Shown one piece after another: positions 2,531 through 56,563 of a DNA stretch of 64,000 bases. The translations under genes and the position numbers were made by a program. The notes under the pieces were generated by a model. It made no database searches. It was given only the letters and a program-made list of their open reading frames with translations, and was not told the DNA's origin. Location: positions 7,838-71,837 of the forward strand of contig JBHEKY010000006.1 of assembly GCA_041859095.1 (NCBI GenBank). Reading direction: 5' to 3'. The stretch comes from Anaerovoracaceae bacterium. GTDB lineage: Bacteria > Bacillota > Clostridia > Peptostreptococcales > Anaerovoracaceae. The stretch's first letter is position 1. Every line of letters starts with the position of its first letter.

Positions 2531-2596
2531 TCGGTCTTCTCCCTTCATGCTTCCCCGGGGGCATCTGATTGCCGCCCAGGCATTCTCGTGTTGCCT

Positions 2597-18630: not shown

Positions 18631-18660
18631 ACAACAAAAATGCCCCTGCATTGGCAGGAG
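18631..18660 (-). terminator. Rho-independent terminator candidate ending the pyl-csaA transcription unit
   Basis: On the minus strand, CTCCTGC-caat-GCAGGGG (7-bp stem with one G-U pair) is followed by CATTTTTGTTGTTT. Confidence 0.4.
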
Positions 18661-18689
18661 CTTTGTATGGCACATTGTGTATTTAGTTA

Positions 18690-19034
18690 TCAGCCTAGTT
18701 TGTCGCCTTTCTTCACCGGTTGCTGGGGCTGGATCAAGACGACCCCTTGTGATGCATAGACGCCAAGGATTAAAACCTCCGACATGAAGTCTTTAATTTG
18801 CTTTGGCGGGAAATTAACCACACAAAGCACTTGCTTGCCTACCAAGTCACCTGCTTCATAGCATTGGGTGATTTGCGCGCTGGATTTTTTGACACCGATT
18901 TCGTCGCCGAAATCAACCCACACTTTGTACGCCGGCATTCTTACCTTATCAAAAGATTCTGCCGCCACGATTTCTCCAACCCGTATATCTAGCTTAGCAA
19001 AATCTTCAAATGTAATCGTATTTTTTGTTTCCAC
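18690..19034 (-). CDS. csaA: CsaA/Trbp111-type OB-fold tRNA-binding protein
   Basis: 114 aa. FAKLDIRVGEIV...VWVDFG.EIG.K.SSAQIT...L.GKQV.CVVNFPP.QI..F.SEVL.LG matches the CsaA/tRNA-binding-domain pattern. GTG start at 19034 with AGGAG 9 nt upstream. Confidence 0.8.
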   Translation of the reverse strand: METKNTITFEDFAKLDIRVGEIVAAESFDKVRMPAYKVWVDFGDEIGVKKSSAQITQCYEAGDLVGKQVLCVVNFPPKQIKDFMSEVLILGVYASQGVVLIQPQQPVKKGDKLG

Positions 19035-19046
19035 TTTGCGATACTC

Positions 19047-19382
19047 CTATTCGTCTTTTTTTCTTTTTTGCAAATCACTGCCGTAGTGTTCCGAGAAGAA
19101 AGTAGCCGAGTATTTTTCCATCTTCCACTCAGGCACTTTGCAGTCGGGACAAGGGGTGAAAACCCACTTGTTCCGAAGCCACCGTGCGGCTCTGGATTTT
19201 CTGGAATTATAGATACGAAAAGACTTGCCGCAATGGGTGGTGACGATGGCAACATTGCCCCGCACATCCATGTCGCGAATGCCGTGGAGCATGCCGCTTT
19301 TGGAGGGCCATAGCTTCATTTTATCCAGGAGCAGGAATAGCTCCGTTCTTTTTCGGTAATACCTTTTTTTGTCGTCACTCAT
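19047..19382 (-). CDS. pylSn: Pyrrolysyl-tRNA synthetase N-terminal tRNA-binding domain protein (split bacterial form)
   Basis: 111 aa. LWPSKSGMLHGIRDMDV...THCGKSFRIYNSRKSRAARWLRNKWVFTPCPDCKV aligns with the archaeal PylS N-domain as I recall it (LWMSRTGTIHKIKHHEV...[34 protein letters not shown]). The stop is TAG. Confidence 0.85.
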   Translation of the reverse strand: MSDDKKRYYRKRTELFLLLDKMKLWPSKSGMLHGIRDMDVRGNVAIVTTHCGKSFRIYNSRKSRAARWLRNKWVFTPCPDCKVPEWKMEKYSATFFSEHYGSDLQKRKKDE

Positions 19383-19437
19383 TTTATTTCGCTTTCCAAG
19401 GTGGGATTTTTCGGACCTATAAAATCACCATGTTTCT

Positions 19438-20226
19438 TTACAGTGCCATGGCCAGCATGGTTGCGGTGCCGATGTCCAGCATGTCGTGCACCAATTGGTT
19501 TTTGAACTGTTCGGCTGCCTCTGCATCAAGCCCCAAAGGGATGCCGGGAGCTGCAATCAGTGCATCGGGTGCAAGCATTTCCTTGTGAATCCACGCTGAC
19601 TCAGGGGTGGCTTCAATAATGTATGGAAAATGGATGATGTCCTGGGGGCGGTTGGGTTTTCCTTGGAATGGATCTTTGTCAAAGACCGTCACCCGGGCAC
19701 CCTTTGCCAGCAGAATCTCTTCTGCATGCCTGCCCACCGGTCCATAGCCTAAAACCAACACAGGTGCGTCTTTTATATCGGCGTTTTTTTTGTTGATCAT
19801 GGCTTCCAATGCGGCAACATAGCCAGCGGCGGTGGCCAGATTGTTCTCCCCGATTTTTGGCGCTTTGGTATTCATCGCAAGGAAGCGGTCATCATCAGCA
19901 ATGAAAATCAAATCAGCACCGGTGGTATAGGCTTCATAAATGCCATTGACGTCGGATTTTTCCATAACAATGCAGTTGAATCCGGTACTCCGCACAATTG
20001 CTGCCACGGACTGTGCAAACTGCCCAATCACGCCCAGTCCGGCGGTGACAGGCACTGCCGCCACCAAAGCATCCCCGCTAAGCCGCCGCAACTCCAAAGG
20101 CGACCGGCCGGCGGCTTTGGCAGCCAGCTCCAGCAAGGACAGTCCTGTTTTTTCCTTGAGTTCCAGGTCCCGTCTTTTGCAACCTTCTTCCATATCCAAA
20201 ATCCATTCAGTAATTAATCTTGTCAA
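19438..20226 (-). CDS. pylD: Pyrrolysine biosynthesis dehydrogenase PylD
   Basis: Rossmann motif LVLGYGPVGRH. The C-terminal ...IAAPGIPLG...IGTATMLAMAL resembles the PylD ending ...STPGIP...LGIGTASML. The start is reassigned to TTG 20226 (GGAAGG 6 nt upstream), giving about 263 aa. The 332-aa track ORF would overlap pylSc. Confidence 0.85.
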   Translation of the reverse strand: MTRLITEWILDMEEGCKRRDLELKEKTGLSLLELAAKAAGRSPLELRRLSGDALVAAVPVTAGLGVIGQFAQSVAAIVRSTGFNCIVMEKSDVNGIYEAYTTGADLIFIADDDRFLAMNTKAPKIGENNLATAAGYVAALEAMINKKNADIKDAPVLVLGYGPVGRHAEEILLAKGARVTVFDKDPFQGKPNRPQDIIHFPYIIEATPESAWIHKEMLAPDALIAAPGIPLGLDAEAAEQFKNQLVHDMLDIGTATMLAMAL

Positions 20227-20318
20227 GGCGATTCCTTCCGTTGGCTTAGTTTTTACCTTCACATACGCGAGGCTGTTAACATAGGTTTTGTCTTTGCATT
20301 CGCAAGGCAATCCAATTC

Positions 20319-21158
20319 TTATAGTTTTAGCGGGACGCCATCCAAGTAAGCAATACTTTTGCCGGCACGCTTGATGGTCTGGTATTCTCCTTTGAGCATG
20401 GCAATTCGTTCCAGCCCCAAGCCGATGCCCACCCAAGGATCAAAGATGCCCCACGCAGGGTCTAAGAGGTGGGGTCCATAAGCGCCGGATGCCAGCTCCA
20501 TACCGTCTACCACAATGTCCAGGGTTTCCCCATAGACTTCGGATTTTTCTACTTCAATTTCGTAATGATTAATGCCCACTGCTTCCATGGCTCCATGAGC
20601 CAAGACTTCCAGACGAGACATCTGCTCCCCCTCTTTGACGCCTGCCAGTTCCACCAGATTCAGCATGGTGAATTCATTCATGTGTTTGGCCCCCTGGGAT
20701 TCTTTGCGGAAGCAAGATCCGATTTCAAAAATACGAACCGGTTGATTGGTAATGGCGTACAAATTACGCATCACTTCATATAGATTTGGTGCAAGCATAG
20801 GACGCATACAGTGCTTTGAATCGACCCAAAAAACCTGGTCAGTCAGGGGATGGCCCGCTGTAATGGTCATCTTGGCCAACATCTCAGCTGTAATCAGAAC
20901 AGGGGTAGAAACCCGGGTAAAGTCGATTCCGATAAGCCATGCGGTCATAGCTTCTTCAATTTGGATAGTCAGTGGCTTATGGGTTTCATGAAGAAGCTTG
21001 GCAAGCTTTGCTTTATTTTCTTTGACCAATACCAATTCCAAGCTTTTGAATACCCGATTTCGCTCTTCCGCGGAATCAAATGTTCGGGATGTATCTTTGG
21101 GATTCCCGTTGAGTTCGGTCAACCGTTGACTTTGAGTCACGGTAAATTTCTCTTCCAT
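20319..21158 (-). CDS. pylSc: Pyrrolysyl-tRNA synthetase catalytic domain (class II aaRS core)
   Basis: 279 aa. CMRPMLAPNLY, IFEIGSCFRKESQGAKHMNEFTMLN, VYGETLDIV..GMELASGA.GPH and PWVGIGLGLERI match the PylS catalytic motifs as I recall them. Confidence 0.92.
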   Translation of the reverse strand: MEEKFTVTQSQRLTELNGNPKDTSRTFDSAEERNRVFKSLELVLVKENKAKLAKLLHETHKPLTIQIEEAMTAWLIGIDFTRVSTPVLITAEMLAKMTITAGHPLTDQVFWVDSKHCMRPMLAPNLYEVMRNLYAITNQPVRIFEIGSCFRKESQGAKHMNEFTMLNLVELAGVKEGEQMSRLEVLAHGAMEAVGINHYEIEVEKSEVYGETLDIVVDGMELASGAYGPHLLDPAWGIFDPWVGIGLGLERIAMLKGEYQTIKRAGKSIAYLDGVPLKL

Positions 21159-21190
21159 ATGATTCTCCTTTGACTACTAGGCTCTTGGGT

Positions 21191-22339
21191 CTAGCGCTTC
21201 GCGAAATTCCCTAGCATTTTCACTCGCTTGCTCTTCAATTCCAATTTCGTCGAGGCCGCATTGATGAACGTGCCTCGCCATGGATCTTGCCCCGGTTGGT
21301 AATCCGTGATTACCTCATCCGCACCGCAGAATCCAGGCTTATGGGTAAGAGGGTTTCCCATGGTCATAATCCGCTCGCCCAAATGATGGGGAATGTTACG
21401 GTTAAACAGGTAATGCTCGTAGGCAACGTATTTGCCCTGCCGCTCCTGATTCTTCAAAAAATAGCCGGTGGAGAACAAGTCCCGAAGCTCCTCCAGCAGA
21501 TTCATCCCCGAGCTATGAAGTACAGCAGTCGGGGTTTGGCTGGGAATTCTCGCGTCAATTTCAAGCATTTTAAAGACACCGTTATGTTCGATCACCTCCA
21601 AATCCATAATCCCATGCAGATTGATTTCTTCGGCTATGCAAAATGCCATTTTGCGCAAAGTCTCTTCCTGGATGGACGTCAGGCCACAAGGGGCTGTCAC
21701 CATTTTACAGTCATAACGCTGATCCATGTGGATTTGGGTCACCAGATAGGTTCGGTACATCCCTGGCTTTCCAATGATTTCAATCGAGTAAGAAGGTCCT
21801 TCCATGAATTCTTGGATAACCAGATCGCATTCTTTTTCTAGGGCTATATGAAGTTCGTCAGGTGTATCCAGACGTTGTACACCATGACTTCCACTGTCGC
21901 AATCCGGCTTACAGATATATGGGTACGTCCCTCCAGGGAAGTATTCGGGCACGGGGATTCCGCATTTTCGAAAAAGCAAATCCGATTTTTTCTTCGAGGA
22001 TGACAGTTGGTATGCCTGCCAGTCGAAAGCCAGGGTATATCCCTTTTCCTTGGCATCCTTGTCCAACCATCTCAATACTGCATCATTTTCTAAGGCCGGC
22101 AAAACGATGTCCGCCTCTTTCATGTCCACCATAAGTTGACTACTCCGCTGGAACAGGTCCTCGCATACAAACCTGCTGCAAAGATGTCGCGCCGGGGCAT
22201 CCGGATTTTTGTCCACCAGAATGGTTTCAATGCCTGCTTTCATCCCAAGATAACAGGCTTCAATTCCCTGAAGCTTCCCTCCGATGATGACAATCTTGTT
22301 ATTCAACGCACTCATGAACGTTTGTATCCCCCTATTCAT
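21191..22339 (-). CDS. pylC: 3-methylornithine--L-lysine ligase PylC (ATP-grasp)
   Basis: 382 aa of ATP-grasp architecture (KIVIIGGKLQG N-terminal Rossmann-like segment; KP..GSGS.GV; EEF..G). It sits between pylB and pylSc. The stop is TAG. Confidence 0.85.
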   Translation of the reverse strand: MNRGIQTFMSALNNKIVIIGGKLQGIEACYLGMKAGIETILVDKNPDAPARHLCSRFVCEDLFQRSSQLMVDMKEADIVLPALENDAVLRWLDKDAKEKGYTLAFDWQAYQLSSSKKKSDLLFRKCGIPVPEYFPGGTYPYICKPDCDSGSHGVQRLDTPDELHIALEKECDLVIQEFMEGPSYSIEIIGKPGMYRTYLVTQIHMDQRYDCKMVTAPCGLTSIQEETLRKMAFCIAEEINLHGIMDLEVIEHNGVFKMLEIDARIPSQTPTAVLHSSGMNLLEELRDLFSTGYFLKNQERQGKYVAYEHYLFNRNIPHHLGERIMTMGNPLTHKPGFCGADEVITDYQPGQDPWRGTFINAASTKLELKSKRVKMLGNFAKR

Positions 22340-22359
22340 TATTTTAAGACGACGATTTT

Positions 22360-23364
22360 TTATTTCATACCCTTCAAAAGGGATAGATATGCTTTGTATG
22401 ATTCCGGTGATCCGACGTTCATGCCTAAGTCTGAAATAATTCGGCTGGCTTCCAATACAGTTCTCCCGCCTTCCTCCACATCCATGGAAGACTGGGCCAC
22501 ACCCATGAGCCCTGAGGCTGGAGGAATGATTGATGTCACCACATTTGCGCCTGCGTTAAGCCTGTCCCGGAGCCCAGCGATGCCATCCACATCCAGAGAG
22601 GCGGGGATCAGCGCGTAGGGATACAGAATCCGAAGCAAGGCAATGACTTTCAATTCTAACAATCTATCCGTGGCAAAAGATTCCTGCATTGGGATTCCTT
22701 CCTGGGGAACGAAACTCATGATTCGCATCTGCATTGCTCCGATTTCGCCCATTGCAAAAAGTGAATCGGCGATGTCGGCAGCGGTTTCTCCTACGCCCGC
22801 CAGCAGACCCTCTTCAACCAACATACCCTTGCTTTTGGCATATCGTTTGGCATGTATCCGCTCATCATAGCTTTGATCCAAGCGCAAACGGCCGAACAAA
22901 GCACGGTTATGGGTTTCCTGATATAGCGCATACCAATCGGCACCCGCCTCTGCAAATCCATCAATCCATTCATCCGGAATGTACCCTGGTGATATCATCA
23001 CTGGCAAACCAGTTTCCGATTTGATGACTTTGGTCAGCTCCATGACGCTTTGGAATCCTTCTTTATGAAATTCCGGGTCTTCTCCCATGGTAAGATCTAT
23101 GAGGTGCACGCCGGATTTGGCCAGGTCCATGGCCAGGGTTTTCGTCTCCTCAAACGTCTTGCGGTATCGGTCTATGGGATTGGATCGCCGGTAGTAACAA
23201 AAGGCGCAATTGTTTCTGCACCAGGTTGTAAAATATACAAAACCGTATAGAAAGACCTGGTCCCCTGTTGTGGTTTTTCTTGCTTCCCTGGCACGGGAAA
23301 AAAGATCCGCCAGTTCCTTGGGGTCATCCGAGTTTAAGATTTTGATGATTTGGTCTTTGTCCAT
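22360..23364 (-). CDS. pylB: Methylornithine synthase PylB (radical SAM lysine mutase)
   Basis: Radical-SAM CxxxCxxC motif (CRNNCAFCYY) and BioB-like TIM-barrel length. The start is ATG 23364 with AAGGGA 6 nt upstream; the track start at 23379 is a TTG. Confidence 0.9.
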   Translation of the reverse strand: MDKDQIIKILNSDDPKELADLFSRAREARKTTTGDQVFLYGFVYFTTWCRNNCAFCYYRRSNPIDRYRKTFEETKTLAMDLAKSGVHLIDLTMGEDPEFHKEGFQSVMELTKVIKSETGLPVMISPGYIPDEWIDGFAEAGADWYALYQETHNRALFGRLRLDQSYDERIHAKRYAKSKGMLVEEGLLAGVGETAADIADSLFAMGEIGAMQMRIMSFVPQEGIPMQESFATDRLLELKVIALLRILYPYALIPASLDVDGIAGLRDRLNAGANVVTSIIPPASGLMGVAQSSMDVEEGGRTVLEASRIISDLGMNVGSPESYKAYLSLLKGMK

Positions 23365-23414
23365 GATGGGTCCCTTCAATCGTTGGCATAAATGCCTCTA
23401 TTTTCGATAAAAAT

Positions 23415-23486
23415 TGGCGAGGAGCCCGAGAGTTTCACTCGGCTGCATAGATTTAGAGTCTATGTGATCCATCCGATCCGCTCCCC
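23415..23486 (-). tRNA. pylT: tRNA-Pyl, anticodon CUA (amber suppressor), CCA encoded
   Basis: The minus strand reads GGGGAGC-G-GATC-GGATG-GATC-A-CATAGA-CTCTAAA-TCTATG-CAG-CCGAG-TGAAACT-CTCGG-GCTCCTC-G-CCA. It folds with a 7-bp acceptor stem, one nt between the acceptor and D stems, a 4-bp D stem with a 5-nt D loop, a 6-bp anticodon stem, a CUA anticodon, a 3-nt variable loop and a T loop lacking TTC. These are the hallmark tRNA-Pyl features. Confidence 0.93.
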
Positions 23487-23490
23487 ACAG

Positions 23491-24897
23491 TTAAAAGGCC
23501 AGCGCTTTCATGTATTCATCCTGGAAGTCGCTGCAGGATGCCAGTTCAATGTGCTCCACCCTGGTTGGCACCGATTTCGCCAGCTCCATTTCAGCCTCGT
23601 TCATCAATGCCATGGAAACCCCAGCTCCCGCGGTGTTCCCTGCGGAAATGATTTTATCCAAGGGCAAAGAAGGAATCAGTCCAATGGCCACTGCGCTTTC
23701 TTTATGGATAAAGTTGCCAAATGCCCCGGCGATGATGATTTTATGGATGTCTTCCGGTTTTTTGTCCATCCGTTTCAGCATAATGGAAATACCGGCAGCC
23801 ACTGCACCTTTTGCTAGCTGGACCTCCCGGATATCTTTTTGAGTGACGACGATGTCTTCACCGTCTTCTTTGTAGACCAAAACAAATTCCCGTCCCTCTT
23901 CGCTGTTGATGAGCCGGTCCGCAAGGGGGCTGCCCGGGTGCGTTTTCTCTAAGTCTTCTTTTGACGCCAGCCGTCCTTTGATGTTAATTAAGCCAGCGCC
24001 AATCATCTCCGCCATGACGTCAATAATTCCGGAGCCACAAATGCCAACCGGTTCAGCGTCATCAACGGTTTTGATAAACACTTCATCGTCTTTGATCTGA
24101 ATCTTTTCGATGGCTCCCGGTGCGGCACGCATGCCGTTTCGGATGGTGGCACCTTCAAAAGCAGGGCCTGCTGCGGTGGAGCATGTCAAGGCAACGCCGC
24201 CACCAGACAACACGATTTCACCATTTGTACCGATGTCCAAAAACAAAGTTAATTTCTCTTCATCAAGAATTCTGGTTGCCACAATGCCGGCAACAATATC
24301 GCCTCCTACATGACCTGCAATATTAGGCAGTAGCGTGATTTGTGCATCTTTGGAAACCAAAAGACCTAATTCGGTTTGGCTTAACTGCAGGGTGCCGGTA
24401 TACATGGGGGAAAAGGGCGCTCTGGCCAGGCTAGCCGGTGGATATCCCGCAAAAATATGGGACATGGTGGTGTTTCCACCGACAGTCACTTGTAGAATTT
24501 CGTCTTTGTCTACGTTATGTTTCGTAATCAGTTCCAAGGTCAGGCCGTTTAGTCCTTCTAAAATTTTTGCTCTGACGTTTGCCAACCGCTGAGGGTCGTC
24601 GTCACAGTAGGTGATTCTGGAAATCACGTCAGCACCAAATTCATTTTGAGGATTGGTGCATGCGGCGGGACCCAATTCCTTTCCTGTTGATAAATCCCAA
24701 AGCATAGCGACCACGGTGGTGGTCCCAATATCAAAAGCTACCCCATATCCGAGTCTGTCGGTTTGGGCCGCGAAGTCGGCTGGGAAAGTGACTAGTTTTG
24801 TTTTGCGTCCGTGGGCGTCCTTCAGAAGATTTGCGCCTTTGCACTTTCCGCACTCGCTGCAAATTCCGGAACACTTTACTGTAGATTTCAAGCTCAT
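23491..24897 (-). CDS. RamA/RACo-like ATP-dependent corrinoid reductive activase (ASKHA fold, DUF4445-type) with an N-terminal Cys cluster
   Basis: 468 aa. N-terminal CSGICSECGKC, then ASKHA-type phosphate motifs (AFDIGTTTVV, FLDIGTNGEIV, AGAFGN). The stop lies only 4 nt before pylT. Confidence 0.75.
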   Translation of the reverse strand: MSLKSTVKCSGICSECGKCKGANLLKDAHGRKTKLVTFPADFAAQTDRLGYGVAFDIGTTTVVAMLWDLSTGKELGPAACTNPQNEFGADVISRITYCDDDPQRLANVRAKILEGLNGLTLELITKHNVDKDEILQVTVGGNTTMSHIFAGYPPASLARAPFSPMYTGTLQLSQTELGLLVSKDAQITLLPNIAGHVGGDIVAGIVATRILDEEKLTLFLDIGTNGEIVLSGGGVALTCSTAAGPAFEGATIRNGMRAAPGAIEKIQIKDDEVFIKTVDDAEPVGICGSGIIDVMAEMIGAGLINIKGRLASKEDLEKTHPGSPLADRLINSEEGREFVLVYKEDGEDIVVTQKDIREVQLAKGAVAAGISIMLKRMDKKPEDIHKIIIAGAFGNFIHKESAVAIGLIPSLPLDKIISAGNTAGAGVSMALMNEAEMELAKSVPTRVEHIELASCSDFQDEYMKALAF

Positions 24898-24933: not shown

Positions 24934-25626
24934 CTATTTTTTGTCAGTGTTTTGTTTATTTTTGATGTTGCAAAATGCACAACCGGATTTGTTTCCCCGG
25001 CAATCGGCGCATTCGGCGTTAAGGCGGACATATGAATCATTCACCCGAAATGTCATCCCCCCACAGGATTTCAGTGGCAGCAAAATTCCGGTGGGTCTGG
25101 TTTCTACGCCAATGGCGGCGCCGTCCAAGAGGGTCGACAACTCTTTCATCTGAAGGGATTCCATCCCATAGAATCCAGGGCCAAATCCATCGCTTAGCGC
25201 GCCCTCTCCTTCAATCATTTCTTCCAGACGCATCCTACCGGCCTCGGTAAAGGCCGTGCCCCAAATGTCCGCAAATAATTGATTCATAATTGGTTCTCCA
25301 TCCAAATGGTACTCGCCCGCAGTAAGCAAATGCACGTACACGCCTTGAATGGCATCCGGATCTAATTGCTCAAAGGCATTGCAATGAAAGACCACCCCAT
25401 CGATGGTGGCAGTAGATCCTGACAAAGTAGGCATATCATAATAGGAGTAGATTGCTTTGATATTGACTCGGCTCCGTATTCTCTCCCTGATTTCAAAGGC
25501 TTCTTTTCGCATTCTCTCATATTTCGGTCCCGGTCGGTCAATTCCGCTGGTCTCCATGAAGTATGCATCAGCCAGTGCGTCACAGTCTTCTGTTGGGATT
25601 GCGATGATTTGGTTTTTTATATCCAT
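24934..25626 (-). CDS. Stand-alone homologue of the methionine synthase (MetH) B12 reactivation domain, with a C-terminal 4-Cys tail
   Basis: SDGFGPGFYGMESLQMKELSTLLDGAAIGVETRPTGILLPLKSCGGM resembles the activation-domain core (SPGYG..W....Q..L..LL....IGV.LTES..M.P.KS.SG). The tail is ECADCRGNKSGCAFC. The stop is TAG, then TAA six codons later. Confidence 0.6.
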   Translation of the reverse strand: MDIKNQIIAIPTEDCDALADAYFMETSGIDRPGPKYERMRKEAFEIRERIRSRVNIKAIYSYYDMPTLSGSTATIDGVVFHCNAFEQLDPDAIQGVYVHLLTAGEYHLDGEPIMNQLFADIWGTAFTEAGRMRLEEMIEGEGALSDGFGPGFYGMESLQMKELSTLLDGAAIGVETRPTGILLPLKSCGGMTFRVNDSYVRLNAECADCRGNKSGCAFCNIKNKQNTDKK

Positions 25627-26540
25627 AAGTACCCTTTCAGGCGATTACCAATTGCCGTGATTATCAGGCTCATCATTTTGAAGCCCACAGCAGAAATCAC
25701 CACGATGTCGGTTTTGCTGATGGGCTGTTCCCAGGAGAGTAGTTCCACCTGGGTTCCGACGCAGCTAATTTCTATATTTCCTCGATCTGTCATAGCAAAA
25801 CCTTTGATCCGATATGCCTGCGGGGATATCTCCCGGACAAACCTCTCCAGCTCATCATGTGGGATGATTTGATCTCCCTTGACGATAAAGGTGGCAGGCC
25901 TTGAGACCACCGTATTGGTGGAATCCCTTGAATCTGATAGCTTCGCCAGGGCAGGATCCAGATTCTTCATTAATTCAGTGATGTCAATCCTGCAATAAGA
26001 TGTAACATATGGGGTAATTTTCGAATTGACTTCTTCTAGTTTTTCGATAATCTCTTTTAACTGGGTTTCGTCTATCAAGTCTGCCTTGTTGATGATCACC
26101 GCGCCACAGAACTCAAGCTGGGCTCGGATGGCAGGTAGTAAGTCGTACAATCCCATGAAGTTTTCAGCGTCCACCACACAGACAGAGCCTCTATAGTCGT
26201 AAGGCTGTTTCACCTTGTGGGCAATTCCGTCCAGAATGCTGTTCATGTTGGCGGGATCAGCCAGACCTGTAGCCTCAATGATGACAAATTCTAGTTCACG
26301 ATGAGACATGTCTATAAGGCTATCCACAAATTTGTCTTTGATGCAGGCACAAAAGATGGAACCGTTGGTCAGCTCCGCTATTTGGATTCCATCCCGTGCG
26401 ACCAACAGTCCATCCACATTCACGTCTCCAAATTCATTGATGATTACACCAATTTTATGAGCCTTCAGGGATTCCATGACCAGTTGCAGCAACGTGGTCT
26501 TGCCTGCGCCGAGAAAACCTGTCAATAAAATCAGTTGCAT
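25617..26540 (-). CDS. CobW/COG0523-family metallochaperone GTPase
   Basis: MQLILLTGFLGAGKTTLL P-loop, a cysteine-containing metal-site-like region (GSIFCAC), an NKADL motif (IINKADL) and a C-terminal CobW_C-like domain. The start is ATG 26540; the track start is 26561. Confidence 0.8.
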   Translation of the reverse strand: MQLILLTGFLGAGKTTLLQLVMESLKAHKIGVIINEFGDVNVDGLLVARDGIQIAELTNGSIFCACIKDKFVDSLIDMSHRELEFVIIEATGLADPANMNSILDGIAHKVKQPYDYRGSVCVVDAENFMGLYDLLPAIRAQLEFCGAVIINKADLIDETQLKEIIEKLEEVNSKITPYVTSYCRIDITELMKNLDPALAKLSDSRDSTNTVVSRPATFIVKGDQIIPHDELERFVREISPQAYRIKGFAMTDRGNIEISCVGTQVELLSWEQPISKTDIVVISAVGFKMMSLIITAIGNRLKGYLWI

Positions 26541-26694
26541 AAGGCACCTCTCTTCTTCCATCCATTATATATGATTCCGTGAAAAATTACATCCGGAATC
26601 TCCGCTGTCTTTAAACAGGGAAATCCCGGATATTAAATGCTATTCATCCGGACGTCAACCGGTGTAAACCAACTTGATTCTTAGGTTTGCCCTG

Positions 26695-28062
26695 TTATTT
26701 TTTGGCGTTGGCGTACTCTTTCACAGTATTGACAAATTCTTCTCTGTCGGGGATGATGGAAACCCATTTGATGTCACCGTCCACACACATGGTGGGCAGA
26801 TTGGTCAGGCCCATCTTGGCGGTTCTTGCAATGTCTTCTTTGATGAAGTATTTATACACTCTGTACTCTGCAATGTCTTTGATTTGGTCAAAGGCATCCA
26901 CCACACTGTTCAACATGTAAGTACACGCCGCACACTGATCGGGATCCAGCAAGAATAATTCAATGATTACTTTTTCTTCGTTGGCATAGTCCGGAATTTC
27001 CACTTCGATGTCGAAGCTAGTTGCGGTTTGGTAATTCTTGATCATTTCTCTGGTGCGATCAGGGTTCTTTGTGGCTTGGGCACAGGCAATGGTGTTTTCA
27101 ATGGGAGTGGCATAAGGCATATCACAGCCCGGGCTGACGATAAAATTCTTCATGCTTCCCACGCTGTCAATTAGGTCAATGACACCCTTCATGTTGTCTT
27201 CCTGGGTTCCATGAAGCATGGTAGTGGTTAGGGGAATGTTTCCGCCAATGCAGATGTTGTAACGGTCGGTTACTTCCTTCGCAAGAGGAAGGTTCACGTT
27301 TTCATCCACAGAGATGCCATCCGGATTCATTTTGCACATGACTTCGATTTGTTGAGTCGCATTACCACAGACAAAGAAGCTGGAGTAAGCGCCCTTCATG
27401 CGGATGAAGTCAAACACTGCGGTGAAGCTTTCTGACATCATCTTTTCAATATGCTTTGGCGAAACCTGGCTAATCAACGGGTCTACCACCGCGATGACAT
27501 CCATACCGGCTTCTATGTACATCTCTGACATTTTGCAGGCAATCTGAGAACAGTAACCAATCAAATCCTTTACATACTCGGGATCTTTCATCATATCCAT
27601 GAAGATATTGCTGCCACGCAGATGGGAAGCCAGAGTGAACGGTCCGCAGATTAGTCCGTAAAGAGCAATGTCTTCGCCAACGGCTTCTTTCGTCTTTCTC
27701 ATGGCATCCAAAATAGCCGGAATTCTACCGGAAGTTTCATCTGGAATCATACATTCGCATGGAATGGTTTTATCAGAAGCCAGGGGATGGCTTTTTACTG
27801 AAGGAGGATTTTCTTTGGCCCACATCAAGTCACACCCAAGAATTTCCGCTTCAACCTGTAAGTCGAAAATAACGGGCATCCCATCAGGCATGTAAAGTTT
27901 GGCGACTTCTTTGAGAGAGGCTACAATTTTGTCGGCATCTTGTAACATTTCCTCCGCATTGTATCCTTTTAGTTTGCCTGCATGGACGCCGGCAAAGGGA
28001 ACCCACGGGTACTCGGTTAATTCCTCATGTCGTAGCGCTTTAAATATCAGTTCCTTACTCAT
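26695..28062 (-). CDS. URO-D family (MtaA/MtbA/CmuA-like) methyltransferase fused to a C-terminal thioredoxin-like CxxC domain
   Basis: Residues ~1-345 show URO-D/MT2-like segments (PWVPFAGVHAG, GPFTLASHL, VCGN, SPGCDMP). Residues ~365-455 form a small thioredoxin-fold-like module with CAAC. GGAGGA lies 5 nt upstream of the ATG. Confidence 0.75.
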   Translation of the reverse strand: MSKELIFKALRHEELTEYPWVPFAGVHAGKLKGYNAEEMLQDADKIVASLKEVAKLYMPDGMPVIFDLQVEAEILGCDLMWAKENPPSVKSHPLASDKTIPCECMIPDETSGRIPAILDAMRKTKEAVGEDIALYGLICGPFTLASHLRGSNIFMDMMKDPEYVKDLIGYCSQIACKMSEMYIEAGMDVIAVVDPLISQVSPKHIEKMMSESFTAVFDFIRMKGAYSSFFVCGNATQQIEVMCKMNPDGISVDENVNLPLAKEVTDRYNICIGGNIPLTTTMLHGTQEDNMKGVIDLIDSVGSMKNFIVSPGCDMPYATPIENTIACAQATKNPDRTREMIKNYQTATSFDIEVEIPDYANEEKVIIELFLLDPDQCAACTYMLNSVVDAFDQIKDIAEYRVYKYFIKEDIARTAKMGLTNLPTMCVDGDIKWVSIIPDREEFVNTVKEYANAKK

Positions 28063-28150: not shown

Positions 28151-28277
28151 TTTTAGTTTTTTTGGTACATTTGGTATTATTATTCGCCATATGGGGGTTA
28201 TGTTTGCACATTAAGAAAATATATACTATAATCATATAAATTATGTTTTACTTTATAGTATTTTTTTGAGGTATTTT

Positions 28278-29597
28278 ATGAATAAGAAACCCTTGTCCGC
28301 TTCCTATCCCATTGGGATGTCCCGGGAAATAGAAAGTTCCATGCTATCCTTTTGCAGCATCACCGGTCTGCCGGTGACCTACTATGACGCTCAGGGACAA
28401 GTCCGGATGGAATACGGTTCTCAGTATAAAATATGCAAATTTCTCAGAGTGTATAACAAGGAAGGCACAACCTGCCGACAGCACTTGATGTCAGCCATCC
28501 GAACCGCCGCCAGTTTAGGGGAGCCCTATTTTTTTGTATGCGCCTCAGGTTTCGTAAACATCGCGATTCCCTTGATTCAAGATGGCAAAAACTACGGTTG
28601 CTTCATCGCGGGTCCAATCATCATGGAAAAATTCAGCCATCGCACCATTGCGAAGCTATTGTCCATGAACATGACTCCCGAGAATACCTCTCAGGAGACT
28701 GACCACAATGCAGATTTCCTGTCTCGGGTTATTTCCATACTCCGAGAAATGTATATTTACACTTCCAAACAGGTGGCGCATCTGGCAACCTTGCTGAATA
28801 ATTCTGTTGTCGCCAATTTGGTGGACAAAACCGATTATGACAAAGTTAATGCAAAATATCTGGAGCAGGTTCAAATTGGAGATGATATTCGGGGGTTGAA
28901 GCGAAGTGGGAAAGAAACCGGCTATCCGGTCAGCCAGGAGCACAACCTGATTGCGCAGGTTCGTGGTGGAAAGACGGCAGAAGCCAAAGAGGCGATGACT
29001 GCATACCTGAATGGCATCCTACTCTACGAGGCCGGGAACCTGGATTTCGTCAAGGTCCATCTCATTGAGCTGTGTGCCTTAATATCCCGGGAAGGTCCGG
29101 ACAGGCATATGGAAAACGAGGAATCCATTCGGGATAGCTTTGCCTACATCGAATCTCTGAACAAAATTGATAACATTCAAGATTTAAAGGAATGGTCCGA
29201 GGGGCTAGTAACTCATTTCACCACAAGGACCGGTCTATTAAGTTATCGCGGAAATTCCCAGTTAGTGCTTCAAGTACTGCGTCTCATCGCAAAGGACGAC
29301 AAGTATCAATTAACCCTTGCCGCCACCGCCACTGAACTACATGTCAATCCCTCTTATCTATCAGGTCATTTCAAGCGGGAAACTGGCATGGGGTTTTCAG
29401 AGTTTGTGAACGAACAAAAGATTAGCAAAAGCAAAGAACTGCTCGAAAAAACAAATCTGCGACTTTTGGAAATCGCAGATTTGTGTGGTTTTGAAGATCA
29501 AAGTTATTATACAAAGGTTTTCAGTAAACGGGTGGGCATGTCGCCCAGAGAATACCGAAATACTATTTGTAGGTCACTTTCGAATTCTGATCAATAA
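28278..29597 (+). CDS. PocR sensory domain + AraC-family HTH transcriptional regulator
   Basis: The N-terminus is PocR-like (C..F........C......A..LGEPYFFVCASGFVNIAIPLI.DG...G). The C-terminus carries an AraC double HTH (LTLAATATELHVNPSYLSGHFKRETGMGFSEFVNEQKI..SKELL...LRLLEIADLCGFEDQSYYTKVFSKRVGMSPREYR). The start is ATG 28278. Confidence 0.8.
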   Translation: MNKKPLSASYPIGMSREIESSMLSFCSITGLPVTYYDAQGQVRMEYGSQYKICKFLRVYNKEGTTCRQHLMSAIRTAASLGEPYFFVCASGFVNIAIPLIQDGKNYGCFIAGPIIMEKFSHRTIAKLLSMNMTPENTSQETDHNADFLSRVISILREMYIYTSKQVAHLATLLNNSVVANLVDKTDYDKVNAKYLEQVQIGDDIRGLKRSGKETGYPVSQEHNLIAQVRGGKTAEAKEAMTAYLNGILLYEAGNLDFVKVHLIELCALISREGPDRHMENEESIRDSFAYIESLNKIDNIQDLKEWSEGLVTHFTTRTGLLSYRGNSQLVLQVLRLIAKDDKYQLTLAATATELHVNPSYLSGHFKRETGMGFSEFVNEQKISKSKELLEKTNLRLLEIADLCGFEDQSYYTKVFSKRVGMSPREYRNTICRSLSNSDQ

Positions 29598-35774: not shown

Positions 35775-36860
35775 TTACTTGTAGACCTTCTCCACATAGG
35801 AGCTGGTCATGGACTTCAGCATGGAACCGTATCCAACTTTAAAAGTCAGTACGTCTCCAACCTTGTATTTATGAGTAGCATCGGTCAAGTCCAACAGCAA
35901 ATGGTCAGAGCTTCCTCCAAGCACTCGAATTTGTAAATCCAGTGGCATCAAGCTATCCACATCGATATCTTGCTTTCCAATGGCCAGAATAGCTCGTTTC
36001 ATTATCCCACGGTCCTCATAAGTTGGCCGATGACCAAATGCATCCAAGCCGACTTCCCCAATGGGAAGAGATGGTTTTTGCTTCAATTCGATGATCTGCG
36101 CTTCCAGCAATAAAGCATCATCCGTTGTGCCGGGCAGTTTGGTGCCATATGCTGTGTCATTGCCCAGCAGAAAGGATTCGCCAAGCCGAAGGTTATTGAT
36201 TCGCTTCGGTAGTTCGCACTTGTCTATCAAGTAGATTGAGCTGGAATTGCCGCCGGAAATCATGTCCAGTTTGATACCCAGTTTTCCTTCAATCCGATCC
36301 GCCCAGTTGCACAGTTGGGAAAGGTTGTCTTCCTTGGGGATAATCGCGCCATAGCAAGTCAGGTTTACAGCCAATCCGTGGAGGGTGATGTTTTTCATGG
36401 CCAGGGTTTTTCGCACCGTAGAAAATATCTCGTCGGAGTTCTCGGTGAAGATGCCCTCTCTCAAATCGCCCAGGTCAATCATTAGAACCACCTTGTGGTT
36501 GATTCCCTGCTTACCGGCCTCTTCATCGAGTAGCTGTATCGTGGAAAGTTCAGAGTTGAAACTAATATCCACATATCGGATGATCTCTTTGATTTCGCAA
36601 GCCTGTGGCAGGCGAATTAACACGGTTTTCTTGCCGTTGGCCCTGGCATACTCAGCATAGGTCATGATGTTTTTCATCCTGGAATCGGCCAGGTAATCCA
36701 CTTTTGGGTGTTTTGCAACCATCTCGATAACGTTACGATCTGCGCAGACTCCTTTTGTGACAATCATCAGGGAACAGTTGCCTCGGTCTTTGGTGATGGC
36801 TGCAACGCCGTCCAGATTGTGCTTCAGTTTTTTGATGTCTATGGTCAATTTTGGATACAT
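35775..36860 (-). CDS. orr: Ornithine racemase (alanine-racemase-fold PLP enzyme)
   Basis: 361 aa with an alanine racemase N-terminal-domain pattern (IVTKGVC with the PLP lysine context). It is the last gene of the ornithine-degradation operon. Confidence 0.72.
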   Translation of the reverse strand: MYPKLTIDIKKLKHNLDGVAAITKDRGNCSLMIVTKGVCADRNVIEMVAKHPKVDYLADSRMKNIMTYAEYARANGKKTVLIRLPQACEIKEIIRYVDISFNSELSTIQLLDEEAGKQGINHKVVLMIDLGDLREGIFTENSDEIFSTVRKTLAMKNITLHGLAVNLTCYGAIIPKEDNLSQLCNWADRIEGKLGIKLDMISGGNSSSIYLIDKCELPKRINNLRLGESFLLGNDTAYGTKLPGTTDDALLLEAQIIELKQKPSLPIGEVGLDAFGHRPTYEDRGIMKRAILAIGKQDIDVDSLMPLDLQIRVLGGSSDHLLLDLTDATHKYKVGDVLTFKVGYGSMLKSMTSSYVEKVYK

Positions 36861-36870
36861 GGGTCTCTCC

Positions 36871-38271
36871 TTAGTCTTCTTCTTTTTTAGGTGGAAACGG
36901 GTGTTTTAGGCTTTGAGCCAGCAATTCGGCCGCGGCTTCCGGATATTTCCTGGAAAGGACTCCCAGGGAGGCCATGATGTAGTCGTTGTCCACAAGGATT
37001 TCTGCTGCCTGGCTGGGAAATAAAAGCATACCGGTATCGTTGTGCTTTGCAATCCGCTTGATGATTTCCACTCGATGGGGCAACCGAGTCAACGCACCAC
37101 CGGTTCCTACAATGAAGTTCACCTGGGTCAGGTCTTTGCCTTCAGCAAGAGTTTGCCTTCCGGAAGGGCCATAGATGTATCTGATGGTGCCCGCGTGCCG
37201 CTCTACGGCCTTTAAGGTCGCTTCTTTGGCTAATCGTTCTACCAATTTGATTTCGTCAGCATTCTTGGGAATCGCAGTATAACTCTCCAGGGTTTTATCT
37301 ACATCAATGTCGGCAAGGTCTTTTCGGAATTTCTCTTCGCCGATGGATTCGATGACTTTCATTCGGTTGACAAAAAGACCCAAGTCTCCTTCCACTGTCC
37401 GTTTGGCTTTAGGTTCGGGACTGATGAGAAGTTTGGCGATGGTTTCCGAATCGTCGGTCACAGAGTGGACATCCGTGGTAGCCCCTCCCACATCTAAAAC
37501 CATCAGATTTCCCAAATACTGATACATCAGCTTGGTGCATTCCATCACAGCACCGGGAGTAGGAATAATCGGCCCATTGACCATATCCCGCACATGCTCC
37601 ATGCCGGGAGCATGGATAATATGTTCTTCAAACGCTTCCTGAATCACCTTGCGGCAAGGCTCCACGTTAAGCTGATCGATCTTGGGATAGACGTTTTCTA
37701 CCACATAGAGTTTCGTGCCGGTATTTTCAAAAATTAGCCTGATTTCCTCTTGGTTTTCAATGTTACCGGCGTAGATCACCGGAATGTTCAGGTTCATGCT
37801 ACGGATCATCTCCGCATTGTCAAGGGCAGTGTCCCGCTCGCCGAAGTCAACCCCGCCTGCAATTAAAATCAGATTTGGCTTTACCTCTTCTATTTTTTTT
37901 AGGTCGGTCCGTCGTAATTTTCCTGCGGTGATGTAGTGGATGATTCCCCCGGCACCTAGCGCTGCTTCTTTGGCGGCACGGGCAGTCATGTCATAAACCA
38001 ATCCATGGACGGTCATCTTTAGGCCGCCTGCAGCCGAGGAGGTTGCCAGCATTTCATCATAGGTCAACTCCGAAATGCCCTTGTTTTTACATAAATCATC
38101 GATGGCTCCTTGCAGTCCCACGCGGACGTCTCCCTCCAAAACGGAAGTTGGCGCTTGGCCCTGACCCCAAAAGATAGGCTGGCCGGATGCAAGATTATGA
38201 AAGCCATTGACCACAGTGGTGGTGGATCCGATTTCGGCCACCAGAACATCAATATTCATCGTTTTCTCCAA
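36871..38271 (-). CDS. GlmL/MutL-family protein (putative B12 aminomutase accessory/reactivase)
   Basis: 466 aa. ASKHA-like motifs (LVAEIGSTTTVV, VLDVGGATTDVHS, VGTGGAL). It lies directly downstream of oraE. Confidence 0.7.
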   Translation of the reverse strand: MEKTMNIDVLVAEIGSTTTVVNGFHNLASGQPIFWGQGQAPTSVLEGDVRVGLQGAIDDLCKNKGISELTYDEMLATSSAAGGLKMTVHGLVYDMTARAAKEAALGAGGIIHYITAGKLRRTDLKKIEEVKPNLILIAGGVDFGERDTALDNAEMIRSMNLNIPVIYAGNIENQEEIRLIFENTGTKLYVVENVYPKIDQLNVEPCRKVIQEAFEEHIIHAPGMEHVRDMVNGPIIPTPGAVMECTKLMYQYLGNLMVLDVGGATTDVHSVTDDSETIAKLLISPEPKAKRTVEGDLGLFVNRMKVIESIGEEKFRKDLADIDVDKTLESYTAIPKNADEIKLVERLAKEATLKAVERHAGTIRYIYGPSGRQTLAEGKDLTQVNFIVGTGGALTRLPHRVEIIKRIAKHNDTGMLLFPSQAAEILVDNDYIMASLGVLSRKYPEAAAELLAQSLKHPFPPKKEED

Positions 38272-38281
38272 ACGGTTTTGT

Positions 38282-38312
38282 GAAAAGCAGGACGGGCTAC
38301 GCCCGCCCTGCT
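38282..38312 (-). terminator. Intra-operon GC-rich hairpin (partial terminator or processing site) between oraE and the glmL-like gene
   Basis: On the minus strand, AGCAGGGCGGGC-gta-GCCCGTCCTGCT (12-bp stem, one mismatch) is followed by TTTTCA. Confidence 0.4.
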
Positions 38313-38356
38313 GCTCAAAGTTTCAAGTAGTACTTATTTCGTGTCGCGCTACAAGC

Positions 38357-40570
38357 TTATTTTTTATCTGCGACTCTTCGTCGACGACGTTCCTCAACAA
38401 GGAAGGATGCCACGTCAATGCCGTGGGAGTTTCGGCCAAAGGCGGCGTCGATGCCGGTCTTCATGCCTTCTTCCGGTATGACCTGGGTCCCGCCTGCAGC
38501 GATGATAACGCTGTCACGGATGCCCTTTTCCACAGCCAATTCATGAATTCGTTTCATGTTCTTGTAGTGGATGTTGTCATGGGAAATAATGGTGGAAGCC
38601 AAGATAACTTCAGCCTTCAGTTCCACTGCAGCATCAACCAGTTTTTCAACCGGAACGGAAGTGCCTAGATAATGAACTTCAATGCCGAACTTCTCAATGC
38701 CACCATGCTTGATGTCGATGATTTCCCGCAAACCTACAGAATGCTCATCCATTCCAACGGTTCCACAAACCAGACGTAGTGGATGTTCTTCAATGTCGGC
38801 TCTGATTTCGGCTTCCGTCAGATACGTGGGTTCCGGTGGAATCACCAGGCTGGCCACGTCGATGTCAAAGGTGACTTTACCCTTTAACTCGATTCGGGTG
38901 CCTTCGGCTTCCTGAAGGACTTCTCTGGAAATGACAGAGGGCTCTGCCAAGCCCATTTTTTTGGCTACTTCAACGGCAACCGCTTCCGCCGTCCGTTTGT
39001 TGGTGGGAATCATCATGGTCATCATAACGATGCCGTCGCCCTGCCATTCCATCTCTGGAATCATCATGTCGGTATGTCGATAACGCTCGGTTTCGGCCAT
39101 TCTGATGTTCACGTTGTCGGTATCATCCAACTCGTCGATGTAGACAATCTTGCTTCTGTCTTCGAAGGTACATCCTCCGATCAGCGCGGAAGGGTCTTCC
39201 GGGTTGCCGCCGTACTGGGCAACATTGTTGTATCCAAAGTGAGCCGTGACCGGTGCCATATAATCTTCGTCCCGTTCAAAGACAAATCCGTAACCGATTC
39301 CGCCGTCGATTTTACGGGCGATACCATCTCCGTGACGTTCAGGATATTCTGCGGAATCCACAAAGAATCCTTCTTCTACGGCTTTGAAATAACCGCCGAC
39401 TTCCAGAACTTCTTCCATGAACAGGCAAGCCTTTTCTTTAATCTCACGGGCTTTCTCGCGAAGGGGTCCATCTTTTTTCAACTCGACCATATCCATCAAG
39501 CCATCTAAACCAATTAAGGTCTGTTTTGCAGTATCGCAAGCTTCTACATTATAGATGTGCCAGGGCACATTACGACCTTCGTCAGGGGTGATGGTGGATT
39601 GAATGTCAGCGCTAGTCAGCTTAGAAACCAACATATTCAGTACGTGCGTTACCGTGGCTTCCCGGGCTGATGAATCGATATATTTGGTGTTCATCTGGGC
39701 TCTCATCCGATACTTGTCACAGAATTCCCGGAGGGCCACCGCATAAGGCAGATCCATAAACACGCAAGGTGCCGGAGTGGCTGTGGGTGGAACAGTAGAA
39801 AGACAGATGTTCTTGGGGTCAATGCCGGCCATCTCGGAAAATTTGGAGTTGATGGCATGCTGAACAATCAGTTCGGGCATGACTTTCCAGGCTTCCCGTG
39901 CGGTAGCATTGGCGTTATGAGCGCCATCAATCTGGGCAATGTCGGCCCACGCCAGTATTTTTTTGGATTCGCAAGCATCGACAAAAGATCGGACACAGTT
40001 GATGTTTCTGTAAAGAACATTGTACTGTGGATCCTGATGAGCGCCATTGACGCCTTCCTCTGCAAACATCACTGCGATATCCGGTCCGGCTACACCCGAG
40101 ACATAGGAATGGTAGTTGATAGGGCGGCCCACTTCATCTTCAATGGCGTCCAGGGCTTTTCTTTGTGCCCGGACTTGCTTTCTGGAAATGGGTACACCGC
40201 CAATACCTTGAGGTGTTCCTTCCACCAGGCTGTCCATGTGGGACTGACCGGCGGTCCGAATAACCATGATATGGTCTGCGCCGTGCCATGCGGCCATTCT
40301 CATACGACGGATATCATCCTCAAAACGTCCCGAAGCGATTTCGGTTGTAATTACTGGGGCGGGCTGAGGATCGATGTTGTCAAAATACTTCGCCGGCGGC
40401 AGAGGCACGCCGTTGGTCAAAGGTTCTGTGGCATCCCTGTATTCAAAGGGACCCATTTTAAGACCCGGAGCCGGCTTACGCCAGGTCCAGCCTGTTCTTC
40501 TGGGCTTATATTTGTCCAGGTCCTGGAGGATTTGTTCGATATCCAGTTTCTCGTTATGGTCTAACTTCAT
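38357..40570 (-). CDS. oraE: D-ornithine 4,5-aminomutase large subunit (B12- and PLP-dependent)
   Basis: 737 aa, the size and architecture of OraE (TIM-barrel PLP domain plus a C-terminal Rossmann B12-binding domain with a DxHxxG-like segment, GMDEHSVG). It is adjacent to the small OraS subunit. Confidence 0.88.
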   Translation of the reverse strand: MKLDHNEKLDIEQILQDLDKYKPRRTGWTWRKPAPGLKMGPFEYRDATEPLTNGVPLPPAKYFDNIDPQPAPVITTEIASGRFEDDIRRMRMAAWHGADHIMVIRTAGQSHMDSLVEGTPQGIGGVPISRKQVRAQRKALDAIEDEVGRPINYHSYVSGVAGPDIAVMFAEEGVNGAHQDPQYNVLYRNINCVRSFVDACESKKILAWADIAQIDGAHNANATAREAWKVMPELIVQHAINSKFSEMAGIDPKNICLSTVPPTATPAPCVFMDLPYAVALREFCDKYRMRAQMNTKYIDSSAREATVTHVLNMLVSKLTSADIQSTITPDEGRNVPWHIYNVEACDTAKQTLIGLDGLMDMVELKKDGPLREKAREIKEKACLFMEEVLEVGGYFKAVEEGFFVDSAEYPERHGDGIARKIDGGIGYGFVFERDEDYMAPVTAHFGYNNVAQYGGNPEDPSALIGGCTFEDRSKIVYIDELDDTDNVNIRMAETERYRHTDMMIPEMEWQGDGIVMMTMMIPTNKRTAEAVAVEVAKKMGLAEPSVISREVLQEAEGTRIELKGKVTFDIDVASLVIPPEPTYLTEAEIRADIEEHPLRLVCGTVGMDEHSVGLREIIDIKHGGIEKFGIEVHYLGTSVPVEKLVDAAVELKAEVILASTIISHDNIHYKNMKRIHELAVEKGIRDSVIIAAGGTQVIPEEGMKTGIDAAFGRNSHGIDVASFLVEERRRRRVADKK

Positions 40571-40582
40571 GCTGTCCTCCTT

Positions 40583-40936
40583 CTACCGAAACTGGGCGAC
40601 AGCTTCATCCCAAGCGTCTCCCTTTGCGAGCATCTCACCGGCTTCTTTGATGGAAATGCTTTTGGCCTTGGCCAGTTTGTAAACCACGTTGCCTGCACCT
40701 TTGCCCATCAGACCGCGGTCCATACAACCTTCTACGATGGGTTTGGTATCCAGAGAGGATATGCCCATGCGCAGCAATACCGAACGCTCTACCGATGGGG
40801 TGGTGTTTTTTCTCCCCAGTTCCAGCATGGGAGAAACCACTTGAGTGGTCAATTCCCAGAACCGGTCATACAGCTCTTTATCGGAGAGTCCTGCAATATG
40901 TTTTCTGCGTTCTGCAAAATCGTCTTGTCTTTTCAT
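40583..40936 (-). CDS. oraS: D-ornithine 4,5-aminomutase small subunit
   Basis: 117 aa, in the position and of the size of OraS. ATGA overlap with ortB. The stop is TAG. Confidence 0.82.
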   Translation of the reverse strand: MKRQDDFAERRKHIAGLSDKELYDRFWELTTQVVSPMLELGRKNTTPSVERSVLLRMGISSLDTKPIVEGCMDRGLMGKGAGNVVYKLAKAKSISIKEAGEMLAKGDAWDEAVAQFR

Positions 40937-42357: not shown

Positions 42358-42656
42358 TATTTTTCACCTCCGAATACGATTCCGCGGACCTGCTTATCAA
42401 TGGCCAACAATTCCGGAATAAATTTCCCGTAGTCATGGTCGTAATAAGGATTTACTTCAATCAGCGTGCCGGCTTCCCGGCGTCCTGTGACGGTTTCAAC
42501 TTCAACTTCATCACCGAATTCTGCATCGGCTTGAAGGAATCCTTTGTCCCACATCTCAAGAGCCACAGCCTTGGTGTCATCCGGAACCTGAGGGGCCCGT
42601 TCAGACGGCTGCAGGATGATCTTGTGGATCCGGACCCATTCGCCTTTCTTAATCAT
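42357..42656 (-). CDS. ortA: 2-amino-4-ketopentanoate thiolase alpha subunit
   Basis: 99 aa small subunit immediately upstream of ortB (TAATG overlap). Confidence 0.8.
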   Translation of the reverse strand: MIKKGEWVRIHKIILQPSERAPQVPDDTKAVALEMWDKGFLQADAEFGDEVEVETVTGRREAGTLIEVNPYYDHDYGKFIPELLAIDKQVRGIVFGGEK

Positions 42657-42682
42657 TTTGTATCTCCTTGGTTTTCGGGAAG

Positions 42683-55150: not shown

Positions 55151-55178
55151 TTTTCGCTCCTTCTTGTCATTTTCCACT

Positions 55179-56509: not shown

Positions 56510-56563
56510 TCAGTCTCCTTTGCCGCATTCATTTACGAAGCGGCGTCGCTTCTATTCTTGTTT

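Follow-up and report, generated by a model that had tools for sequence, protein, structure and literature searches.

The 64-kb window analyzed here, a stretch of 64,000 nucleotides from contig JBHEKY010000006.1 of an Anaerovoracaceae bacterium, contains at positions 19,047 to 23,486 one tRNA gene and five protein genes related to pyrrolysine (Pyl), the 22nd amino acid. Judging from the sequence, this region is very probably a working pyrrolysine cassette of the bacterial split-synthetase kind in an Anaerovoracaceae-like Clostridia genome. PylB is a lysine mutase that produces 3-methyl-D-ornithine, PylC joins this product to a second lysine, and PylD oxidizes the resulting compound, upon which the ring closes. 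In the organism studied here these three enzymes would supply pyrrolysine from two lysines, PylSc would charge tRNA-Pyl(CUA) with the aid of the tRNA-binding PylSn, and the charged tRNA would read UAG in client genes. The six genes of the cassette are as follows, with profile scores given next to the cut-off of each family.

23415..23486, minus strand: pylT, tRNA-Pyl (CUA), called by ARAGORN and with its structure read from the sequence; a 69-nt body plus an encoded CCA.
22360..23379, minus strand: pylB, radical-SAM methylornithine synthase; TIGR03910, 434 bits (cut-off 348); CRNNCAFC motif.
21191..22339, minus strand: pylC, ATP-grasp 3-methylornithine--L-lysine ligase; TIGR03909, 347 bits (cut-off 248); stop codon TAG.
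20319..21158, minus strand: pylSc, class II catalytic subunit of pyrrolysyl-tRNA synthetase; TIGR02367, 301 bits (cut-off 178).
19438..20226, minus strand: pylD, 3-methylornithyl-N6-lysine dehydrogenase; TIGR03911, 206 bits (cut-off 150).
19047..19382, minus strand: pylSn, tRNA-Pyl-binding small subunit; TIGR03912, 124 bits (cut-off 51); stop codon TAG.

The identities of PylB, PylC, PylSc, PylD and PylSn were judged against the curated NCBIfam equivalog cut-offs, and all five proteins score above them. A first-pass annotation made from the sequence had named the same five proteins and proposed such a hidden Markov model search as a check; its assignments hold, and the motifs it quoted (CRNNCAFC, CMRPMLAPNLY, FEIGSCFRKE and YGETLD) are all found in the translations. 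Its description of a complete split-type cassette is likewise borne out, with PylSc and PylSn encoded separately, each above its cut-off, together with a textbook tRNA-Pyl. The best solved structure for PylSc is that of Desulfitobacterium hafniense PylSc (3dsq/2zni), which aligns end to end with an E value of 8e-82, and the next-best structures are archaeal enzymes of the ΔPylSn class. PylSn aligns with the PylSn N-terminal domain of Methanosarcina mazei (5ud5), and one histidine and three cysteines are conserved in this alignment; we take these residues to be the zinc ligands of 5ud5.

Two of the protein genes probably start downstream of the first possible codon. The open reading frame (ORF) of pylB opens at TTG 23379, while the likely start is ATG 23364, which follows an AAGGGA ribosome-binding site and gives a protein of 334 amino acids. 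For pylD, the mechanically defined ORF (332 amino acids from TTG 20436) extends into pylSc. Translation more likely begins at TTG 20226, which follows a GGAAGGA ribosome-binding site and gives 262 amino acids; the pylD gene call of a relative has this same length and carries the PylD_N domain.

The single tRNA gene identified by ARAGORN in the whole 64-kb window is pylT, called as tRNA-Pyl with the anticodon cta. Its 72 nt can be divided into structural elements as GGGGAGC-G-GATC-GGATG-GATC-A-CATAGA-CTCTAAA-TCTATG-CAG-CCGAG-TGAAACT-CTCGG-GCTCCTC-G-CCA. The 5' half comprises a 7-bp acceptor stem, a single linker base (G8), a 4-bp D stem and a 5-nt D loop. The anticodon arm has a 6-bp stem and the loop CUCUAAA and is followed by the 3-nt variable loop CAG; the T arm has a 5-bp stem and the loop UGAAACU, which lacks T-psi-C, and the discriminator G precedes the encoded CCA. 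All tRNA-Pyl features that the first-pass annotation had listed (the CUA anticodon, the 6-bp anticodon stem, the 3-nt variable loop, the 5-nt D loop and the one base between acceptor and D stems) are present.

Comparison with related loci supports this structure. ARAGORN made 63 tRNA-Pyl calls in the window and 62 related loci, corresponding to 38 distinct sequences, and a covariation alignment (A2) was built from the 32 distinct 72-nt sequences of the window and its relatives. In this alignment 99.7% of the cells of the cloverleaf are standard pairs, compared with 25-60% when the 3' partners are slid. Compensatory double changes occur in 10 of the 22 pairs, none of 500 shuffles reached the observed covariation, and every helix of pylT is supported across 32 distinct relatives. 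The G1-C68 pair and G69 are invariant in the alignment. They correspond to the G1:C72 pair and the G73 discriminator reported as identity elements for the pyrrolysyl-tRNA synthetase of D. hafniense.

With each GTDB species represented by a single genome, a scan gave at least 582 loci with a relative of PylSc, of which the 80 most similar were surveyed with 10-kb flanks (individual loci are designated below by numbers such as L001). These come mostly from Anaerovoracaceae, Emergencia, Ihubacter, Lentihominibacter and related Clostridia. Ten proteins of the window were mapped to the loci by tblastn and pylT was mapped by ARAGORN. Gene orders were counted in the 57 loci that have all five protein genes (56 genome loci and the window): B-C-Sc-D-Sn is found in 33 of them, Sc-D-B-C-Sn in 15, Sc-Sn-D-B-C in 6 and other orders in 3. 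The order Sc-B-C-D was found in none of the 80 loci. When pylT is included, the exact order of the window, T-B-C-Sc-D-Sn, occurs in six other species (L001, L012, L021, L024, L040 and L078), and the commonest variant is B-C-Sc-D-T-Sn, which is present in 19 loci including those of Emergencia timonensis and Ihubacter and usually has a CobW gene between pylT and pylSn.

The first-pass annotation had described the gene order as non-canonical. It does differ from the published Desulfitobacterium-type order, but the counts given above mean that it is not rare. B-C-Sc-D-Sn is the usual order in the Anaerovoracaceae-type loci surveyed, and as far as is known this rearrangement of the lineage makes no mechanistic difference. 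The general bacterial orders have been given as pylTScBCDSn or pylSnScBCD (PMC3941956), and that of Gram-positives as pylScBCDSn (PMC2933860). Our literature search found no description of the B-C-Sc-D order, which is not proof that the order is undescribed.

Two further observations were made in the survey. Six loci (L002, L003, L022, L048, L049 and L059) have a complete B-C-Sc-D-Sn set and no tRNA-Pyl detectable by ARAGORN in the loci as fetched; their pylT may sit elsewhere or be too divergent for this program. In the Emergencia-type loci L030, L032, L049, L056 and L061 a small ORF comes after pylSn, in some cases in its reading frame, and by eye it has the look of a PadR-type regulator.

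The six pyl genes would sit towards the 3' end of a single long transcription unit on the minus strand, which opens with genes of the kind accessory to corrinoid methyltransferases. The other genes of this unit, and a divergent regulator gene, are as follows.

26695..28062, minus strand: URO-D-family protein similar to the methyltransferase 2 (MT2) proteins MtaA and MtbA, 455 amino acids; Pfam URO-D with an E value of 7e-51 over residues 2-332; first gene of the unit.
25617..26561, minus strand: CobW/G3E-family GTPase; Pfam cobW with an E value of 7.8e-40.
24934..25626, minus strand: cysteine-rich protein of 230 amino acids, here called U230, with a predicted MetH activation-domain fold, assigned from this fold and distant family hits; stop codon TAG.
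23491..24897, minus strand: corrinoid reductive activase of the RACo/RamA superfamily, 468 amino acids; immediately upstream of pylT.
18690..19034, minus strand: CsaA/Trbp111-type tRNA-binding protein; NF007494, 171 bits (cut-off 109); probably the last gene of the unit.
28266..29597, plus strand: regulator with a PocR sensor and an AraC-type DNA-binding region, divergent from the unit; Pfam PocR and HTH_AraC/HTH_18.

All genes of the unit share one strand, and the gaps between them measure 4-92 nt. A terminator-like hairpin at 18661..18642, after csaA, is the sole convincing one, and the unit probably ends there. The PocR/AraC-type protein is a candidate regulator of the unit, a role suggested by its position. 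Four nucleotides (ctgt) separate the stop codon taa of the activase gene (23491..23493) from G1 of pylT; the 4-nt gap given in the first-pass annotation can be read directly in the sequence. A search of the minus strand from the activase gene to pylB gave no promoter-like site. Across the survey, more than 30 loci have pylT 3-15 nt past the stop codon of the preceding ORF, which is the activase gene, the U230 gene or pylD. This close spacing is therefore a trait of the family and supports transcription of pylT within an mRNA. Since pylT abuts the activase gene with no promoter-like site between them, it is reasonable to infer that pylT is transcribed inside the long mRNA and then cut out of it.

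The same neighborhood recurs in the survey. The UROD, U230, RamA and CobW genes accompany the pyl genes or are interleaved with them in most of the 80 loci, and CobW in particular lies in or adjoins the pyl clusters of many relatives. The full arrangement UROD-CobW-U230-RamA-T-B-C-Sc-D-Sn is also found in the independent assemblies L001, L021 and L078 and, without CobW, in L012, L024 and L040. The long form of the URO-D-family protein is 70-95% identical in the pyl loci of relatives. This protein is about 120 amino acids longer than the URO-D domain, with a weakly thioredoxin-like C-terminal extension that contains a CAAC motif; the last 131 amino acids give a weak match to Thioredoxin_3.

The activase can be placed at the level of the RACo/DUF4445 superfamily only. 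Its scores are below the family cut-offs both for AcsV (NF040756, 356 against 800 bits) and for RamA (TIGR04270, 125 against 500 bits), and the activase gene call of a relative carries Raco_middle and RACo_C_ter domains. The "RamA-like" label of the first-pass annotation is thus appropriate for the superfamily only.

U230 is annotated as hypothetical in public sources, and the protein of the window gave no match of its own in Pfam, NCBIfam or PDB sequence and profile searches. What identifies it is the predicted fold, together with Pfam matches among distant members of its family: 12 of 26 diverse U230 homologs match the methionine synthase activation domain (PF02965). An AlphaFold2 model of U230 has a mean predicted local distance difference test score (pLDDT) of 87, and in Foldseek each of its 18 best PDB matches is a MetH activation domain, led by 1j6r, the stand-alone activation domain TM0269 of Thermotoga, with an E value of 1.4e-7 and a template modeling (TM) score of 0.76 relative to the target. 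The model and these hits indicate that the U230 family has the fold of the MetH activation domain, which binds S-adenosylmethionine. Four C-terminal cysteines are invariant in the family. Across Anaerovoracaceae the U230 genes are found together with pyl genes, sometimes placed between pylD and pylT.

Several results weigh against a working cassette in this organism or against parts of its description. Rfam gave no match to pylT, either with the whole window at the gathering threshold or with the pylT region at E values up to 10. The first-pass annotation had proposed that the 72-nt element be scored as tRNA-Pyl; ARAGORN calls it as such, while the lack of an Rfam match is, read literally, the outcome which that annotation had said would speak against its claim. 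We know of no tRNA-Pyl family in Rfam, and the compact shape of tRNA-Pyl is poorly handled by the general tRNA model. The Rfam miss can be explained by this atypical shape, as detection by a general model is not a defining feature of tRNA-Pyl, and we do not count it against the assignment because the ARAGORN call and the covariation are decisive. With queries taken from L058, tblastn found no match to MttB, MtbB or the corrinoid protein in the window (MtmB was not a query), and a scan for ORFs that continue through TAG found no plausible TAG-interrupted methyltransferase ORF there. TAG also ends about 20 of the 62 ORFs of at least 100 amino acids in the window (about 30%), including pylC, pylSn and the U230 gene. 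TAG is thus not depleted in this stretch. Such frequent use as a stop codon implies that TAG is not reassigned and that its decoding as Pyl would be conditional or partial.

One rival possibility is an intact cassette that stands idle or is decaying, after loss of the substrate-specific methyltransferase 1 (MT1) genes and the corrinoid protein genes found next to the module in relatives. Within 10 kb in the surveyed loci there is a corrinoid protein gene in 53 of 80 cases, a homolog of MtbB, whose gene contains TAG, in 43 and an MttB-superfamily homolog in 33. The TAG of MtbB was read at ...DGL*IG.GDP... in the translated loci L022 and L058, and that of MttB at ...GGT*GDS... in L058 (the asterisk marks the codon). 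By contrast, the window has no gene for MttB, MtbB or a corrinoid protein, and neither do L001, L078, L002 and L003 in the loci as fetched. Some relatives have MT1 genes between the URO-D and CobW genes, where the two are adjacent in the window. On the other side, all pyl ORFs are full length and above their equivalog cut-offs. L001 and L078 have exactly the same pylT as the window, although the pyl proteins of these species are only 63-97% identical to those of the window, and an identical tRNA despite such protein divergence implies purifying selection. Moreover, the window covers only 64 kb of the genome and client genes can sit anywhere. An idle or decaying cassette is therefore unlikely in our view. 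The first-pass annotation put its claim that the organism expands its genetic code too firmly: the claim gains support from the intact, conserved cassette and is tempered by the window's lack of a client gene and by its many TAG stops. Decoding of UAG as Pyl in this organism is a well-founded expectation from that cassette. Another possibility is that the order T-B-C-Sc-D-Sn is an artifact of assembly or binning, as the source of the contig appears to be metagenome-derived. The chance of this is negligible: the order and its neighbors are repeated in no fewer than six independent assemblies, among them contigs of several hundred kilobases and of megabase size, and also in a JGI contig, which in effect refutes it.

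A different reading concerns the junction of pylSn and csaA. The csaA gene starts 12 nt after the TAG of pylSn (19047..19049), in the same frame and with no intervening stop. If this TAG were read as Pyl, a PylSn-CsaA fusion would be made only with the Pyl system active and might serve as a functional or self-regulating form of the tRNA-binding subunit. PylSn and CsaA are both tRNA-binding, and the identical 12-nt spacing is found in a metagenome contig. However, L001, the closest species with a PylSn 97% identical to that of the window, has TAA at this stop, and csaA follows pylSn in only 2 of the 80 loci, the gene being seen only in the window, L001 and the one metagenome contig. The csaA gene also starts at a GTG of its own, with a GGAG ribosome-binding site. 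Across the family the pylSn stops are 33 TAA, 19 TAG and 18 TGA, so TAG is not preferred, and the window contains several further in-frame TAG junctions that are due to chance, for example between the small and large subunits of ornithine aminomutase. Such a regulated fusion is highly improbable, and we judge the junction to be incidental given the TAA in L001, the rarity of the csaA adjacency and the chance junctions elsewhere. In a related version, with the Pyl system switched on, some ribosomes might produce a PylSn-Pyl-EYRK-CsaA fusion as a Pyl-dependent, self-reporting variant of the subunit that recruits the tRNA. A separate and weaker reading is that this sub-lineage might have uncoupled the pyl cassette from methylamine methyltransferases and use Pyl in an undescribed client. 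We regard these readings as very unlikely. The preferred interpretation remains a functional split-synthetase pyrrolysine cassette whose charged tRNA would read UAG in client genes.

Such a cassette can be compared with several known systems. The D. hafniense cluster, pylT-Sc-B-C-D-Sn, has the same six components, with a split synthetase, a compact tRNA-Pyl and pylSn in the last position. In contrast to that cluster, pylSc of the window lies between pylC and pylD, not directly after pylT, and the cassette is joined to the tail of a methyltransferase-accessory operon. In Desulfotomaculum acetoxidans a RamA homolog is found inside the pyl cluster and an MtbA homolog nearby (PMC2933860), a combination which is likewise present here; its RamA homolog lies between pylT and pylS, whereas the activase gene of the window is upstream of pylT. 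The Methanosarcina cluster pylTSBCD has the same biosynthetic enzymes and type of tRNA, and its pylT is likewise the first gene and is co-transcribed with the others, as would be the case here. It differs in the order S-B-C-D and in its PylS, which is a single fused polypeptide, while the synthetase of the window is split.

The window can also be compared with the loci of Emergencia, Ihubacter and other Anaerovoracaceae, such as L061 (Emergencia timonensis) and L052 (Ihubacter sp.), which share the module UROD-U230-RamA-B-C-Sc-D...Sn. The pylT of the Emergencia type comes after pylD and is separated from pylSn by CobW, whereas the window has pylT ahead of pylB and has CobW upstream. Genes for MttB, MtbB and corrinoid proteins, which the window lacks, are also found nearby in Emergencia-type loci. 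Pyl-type MttB has been described from Emergencia and from a new genus of Anaerovoracaceae (PMC10653893), and the class with PylSn and PylSc comprises about 200 sequences in surveys (PMC11363022). The locus described here adds to a well-known type of system in a family with reported Pyl use and leaves the understanding of Pyl systems unchanged.

The remainder of the window contains several other gene clusters. An ornithine fermentation cluster at 35775..43741 on the minus strand encodes an alanine-racemase-fold protein, a MutL-like reactivase, a PLP (pyridoxal phosphate)-dependent enzyme and 2,4-diaminopentanoate dehydrogenase. The same cluster encodes the B12-binding large subunit of D-ornithine aminomutase (737 amino acids), and the preceding small ORF ends with TAG in the same frame. 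A histidine biosynthesis operon is found on the minus strand at 58247..59836 and 53730..58254; its first gene encodes a 529-amino-acid fusion of a HisZ-like (tRNA-synt_His) part and HisG (ATP phosphoribosyltransferase). At the left end, a minus-strand open frame of at least 865 codons (1..2594) runs off the window, directly downstream of and in frame with a TAG-ended CNNM/CorC gene (2597..3859).

At least four recurrent orders of the pyl genes occur in Anaerovoracaceae and relatives, none of them the textbook one, and the genes are consistently interleaved with a module of URO-D-type MT2, CobW, MetH-activation-like and activase genes. The gene-order census and the assignment of U230 to the MetH activation-domain fold may be reused in other studies, and the census outweighs the single locus in value. 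For the organism itself, carrying the full machinery for the 22nd amino acid would mean that any TAG-interrupted methylamine methyltransferase genes elsewhere in its genome should be annotated as read through and not taken for pseudogenes.

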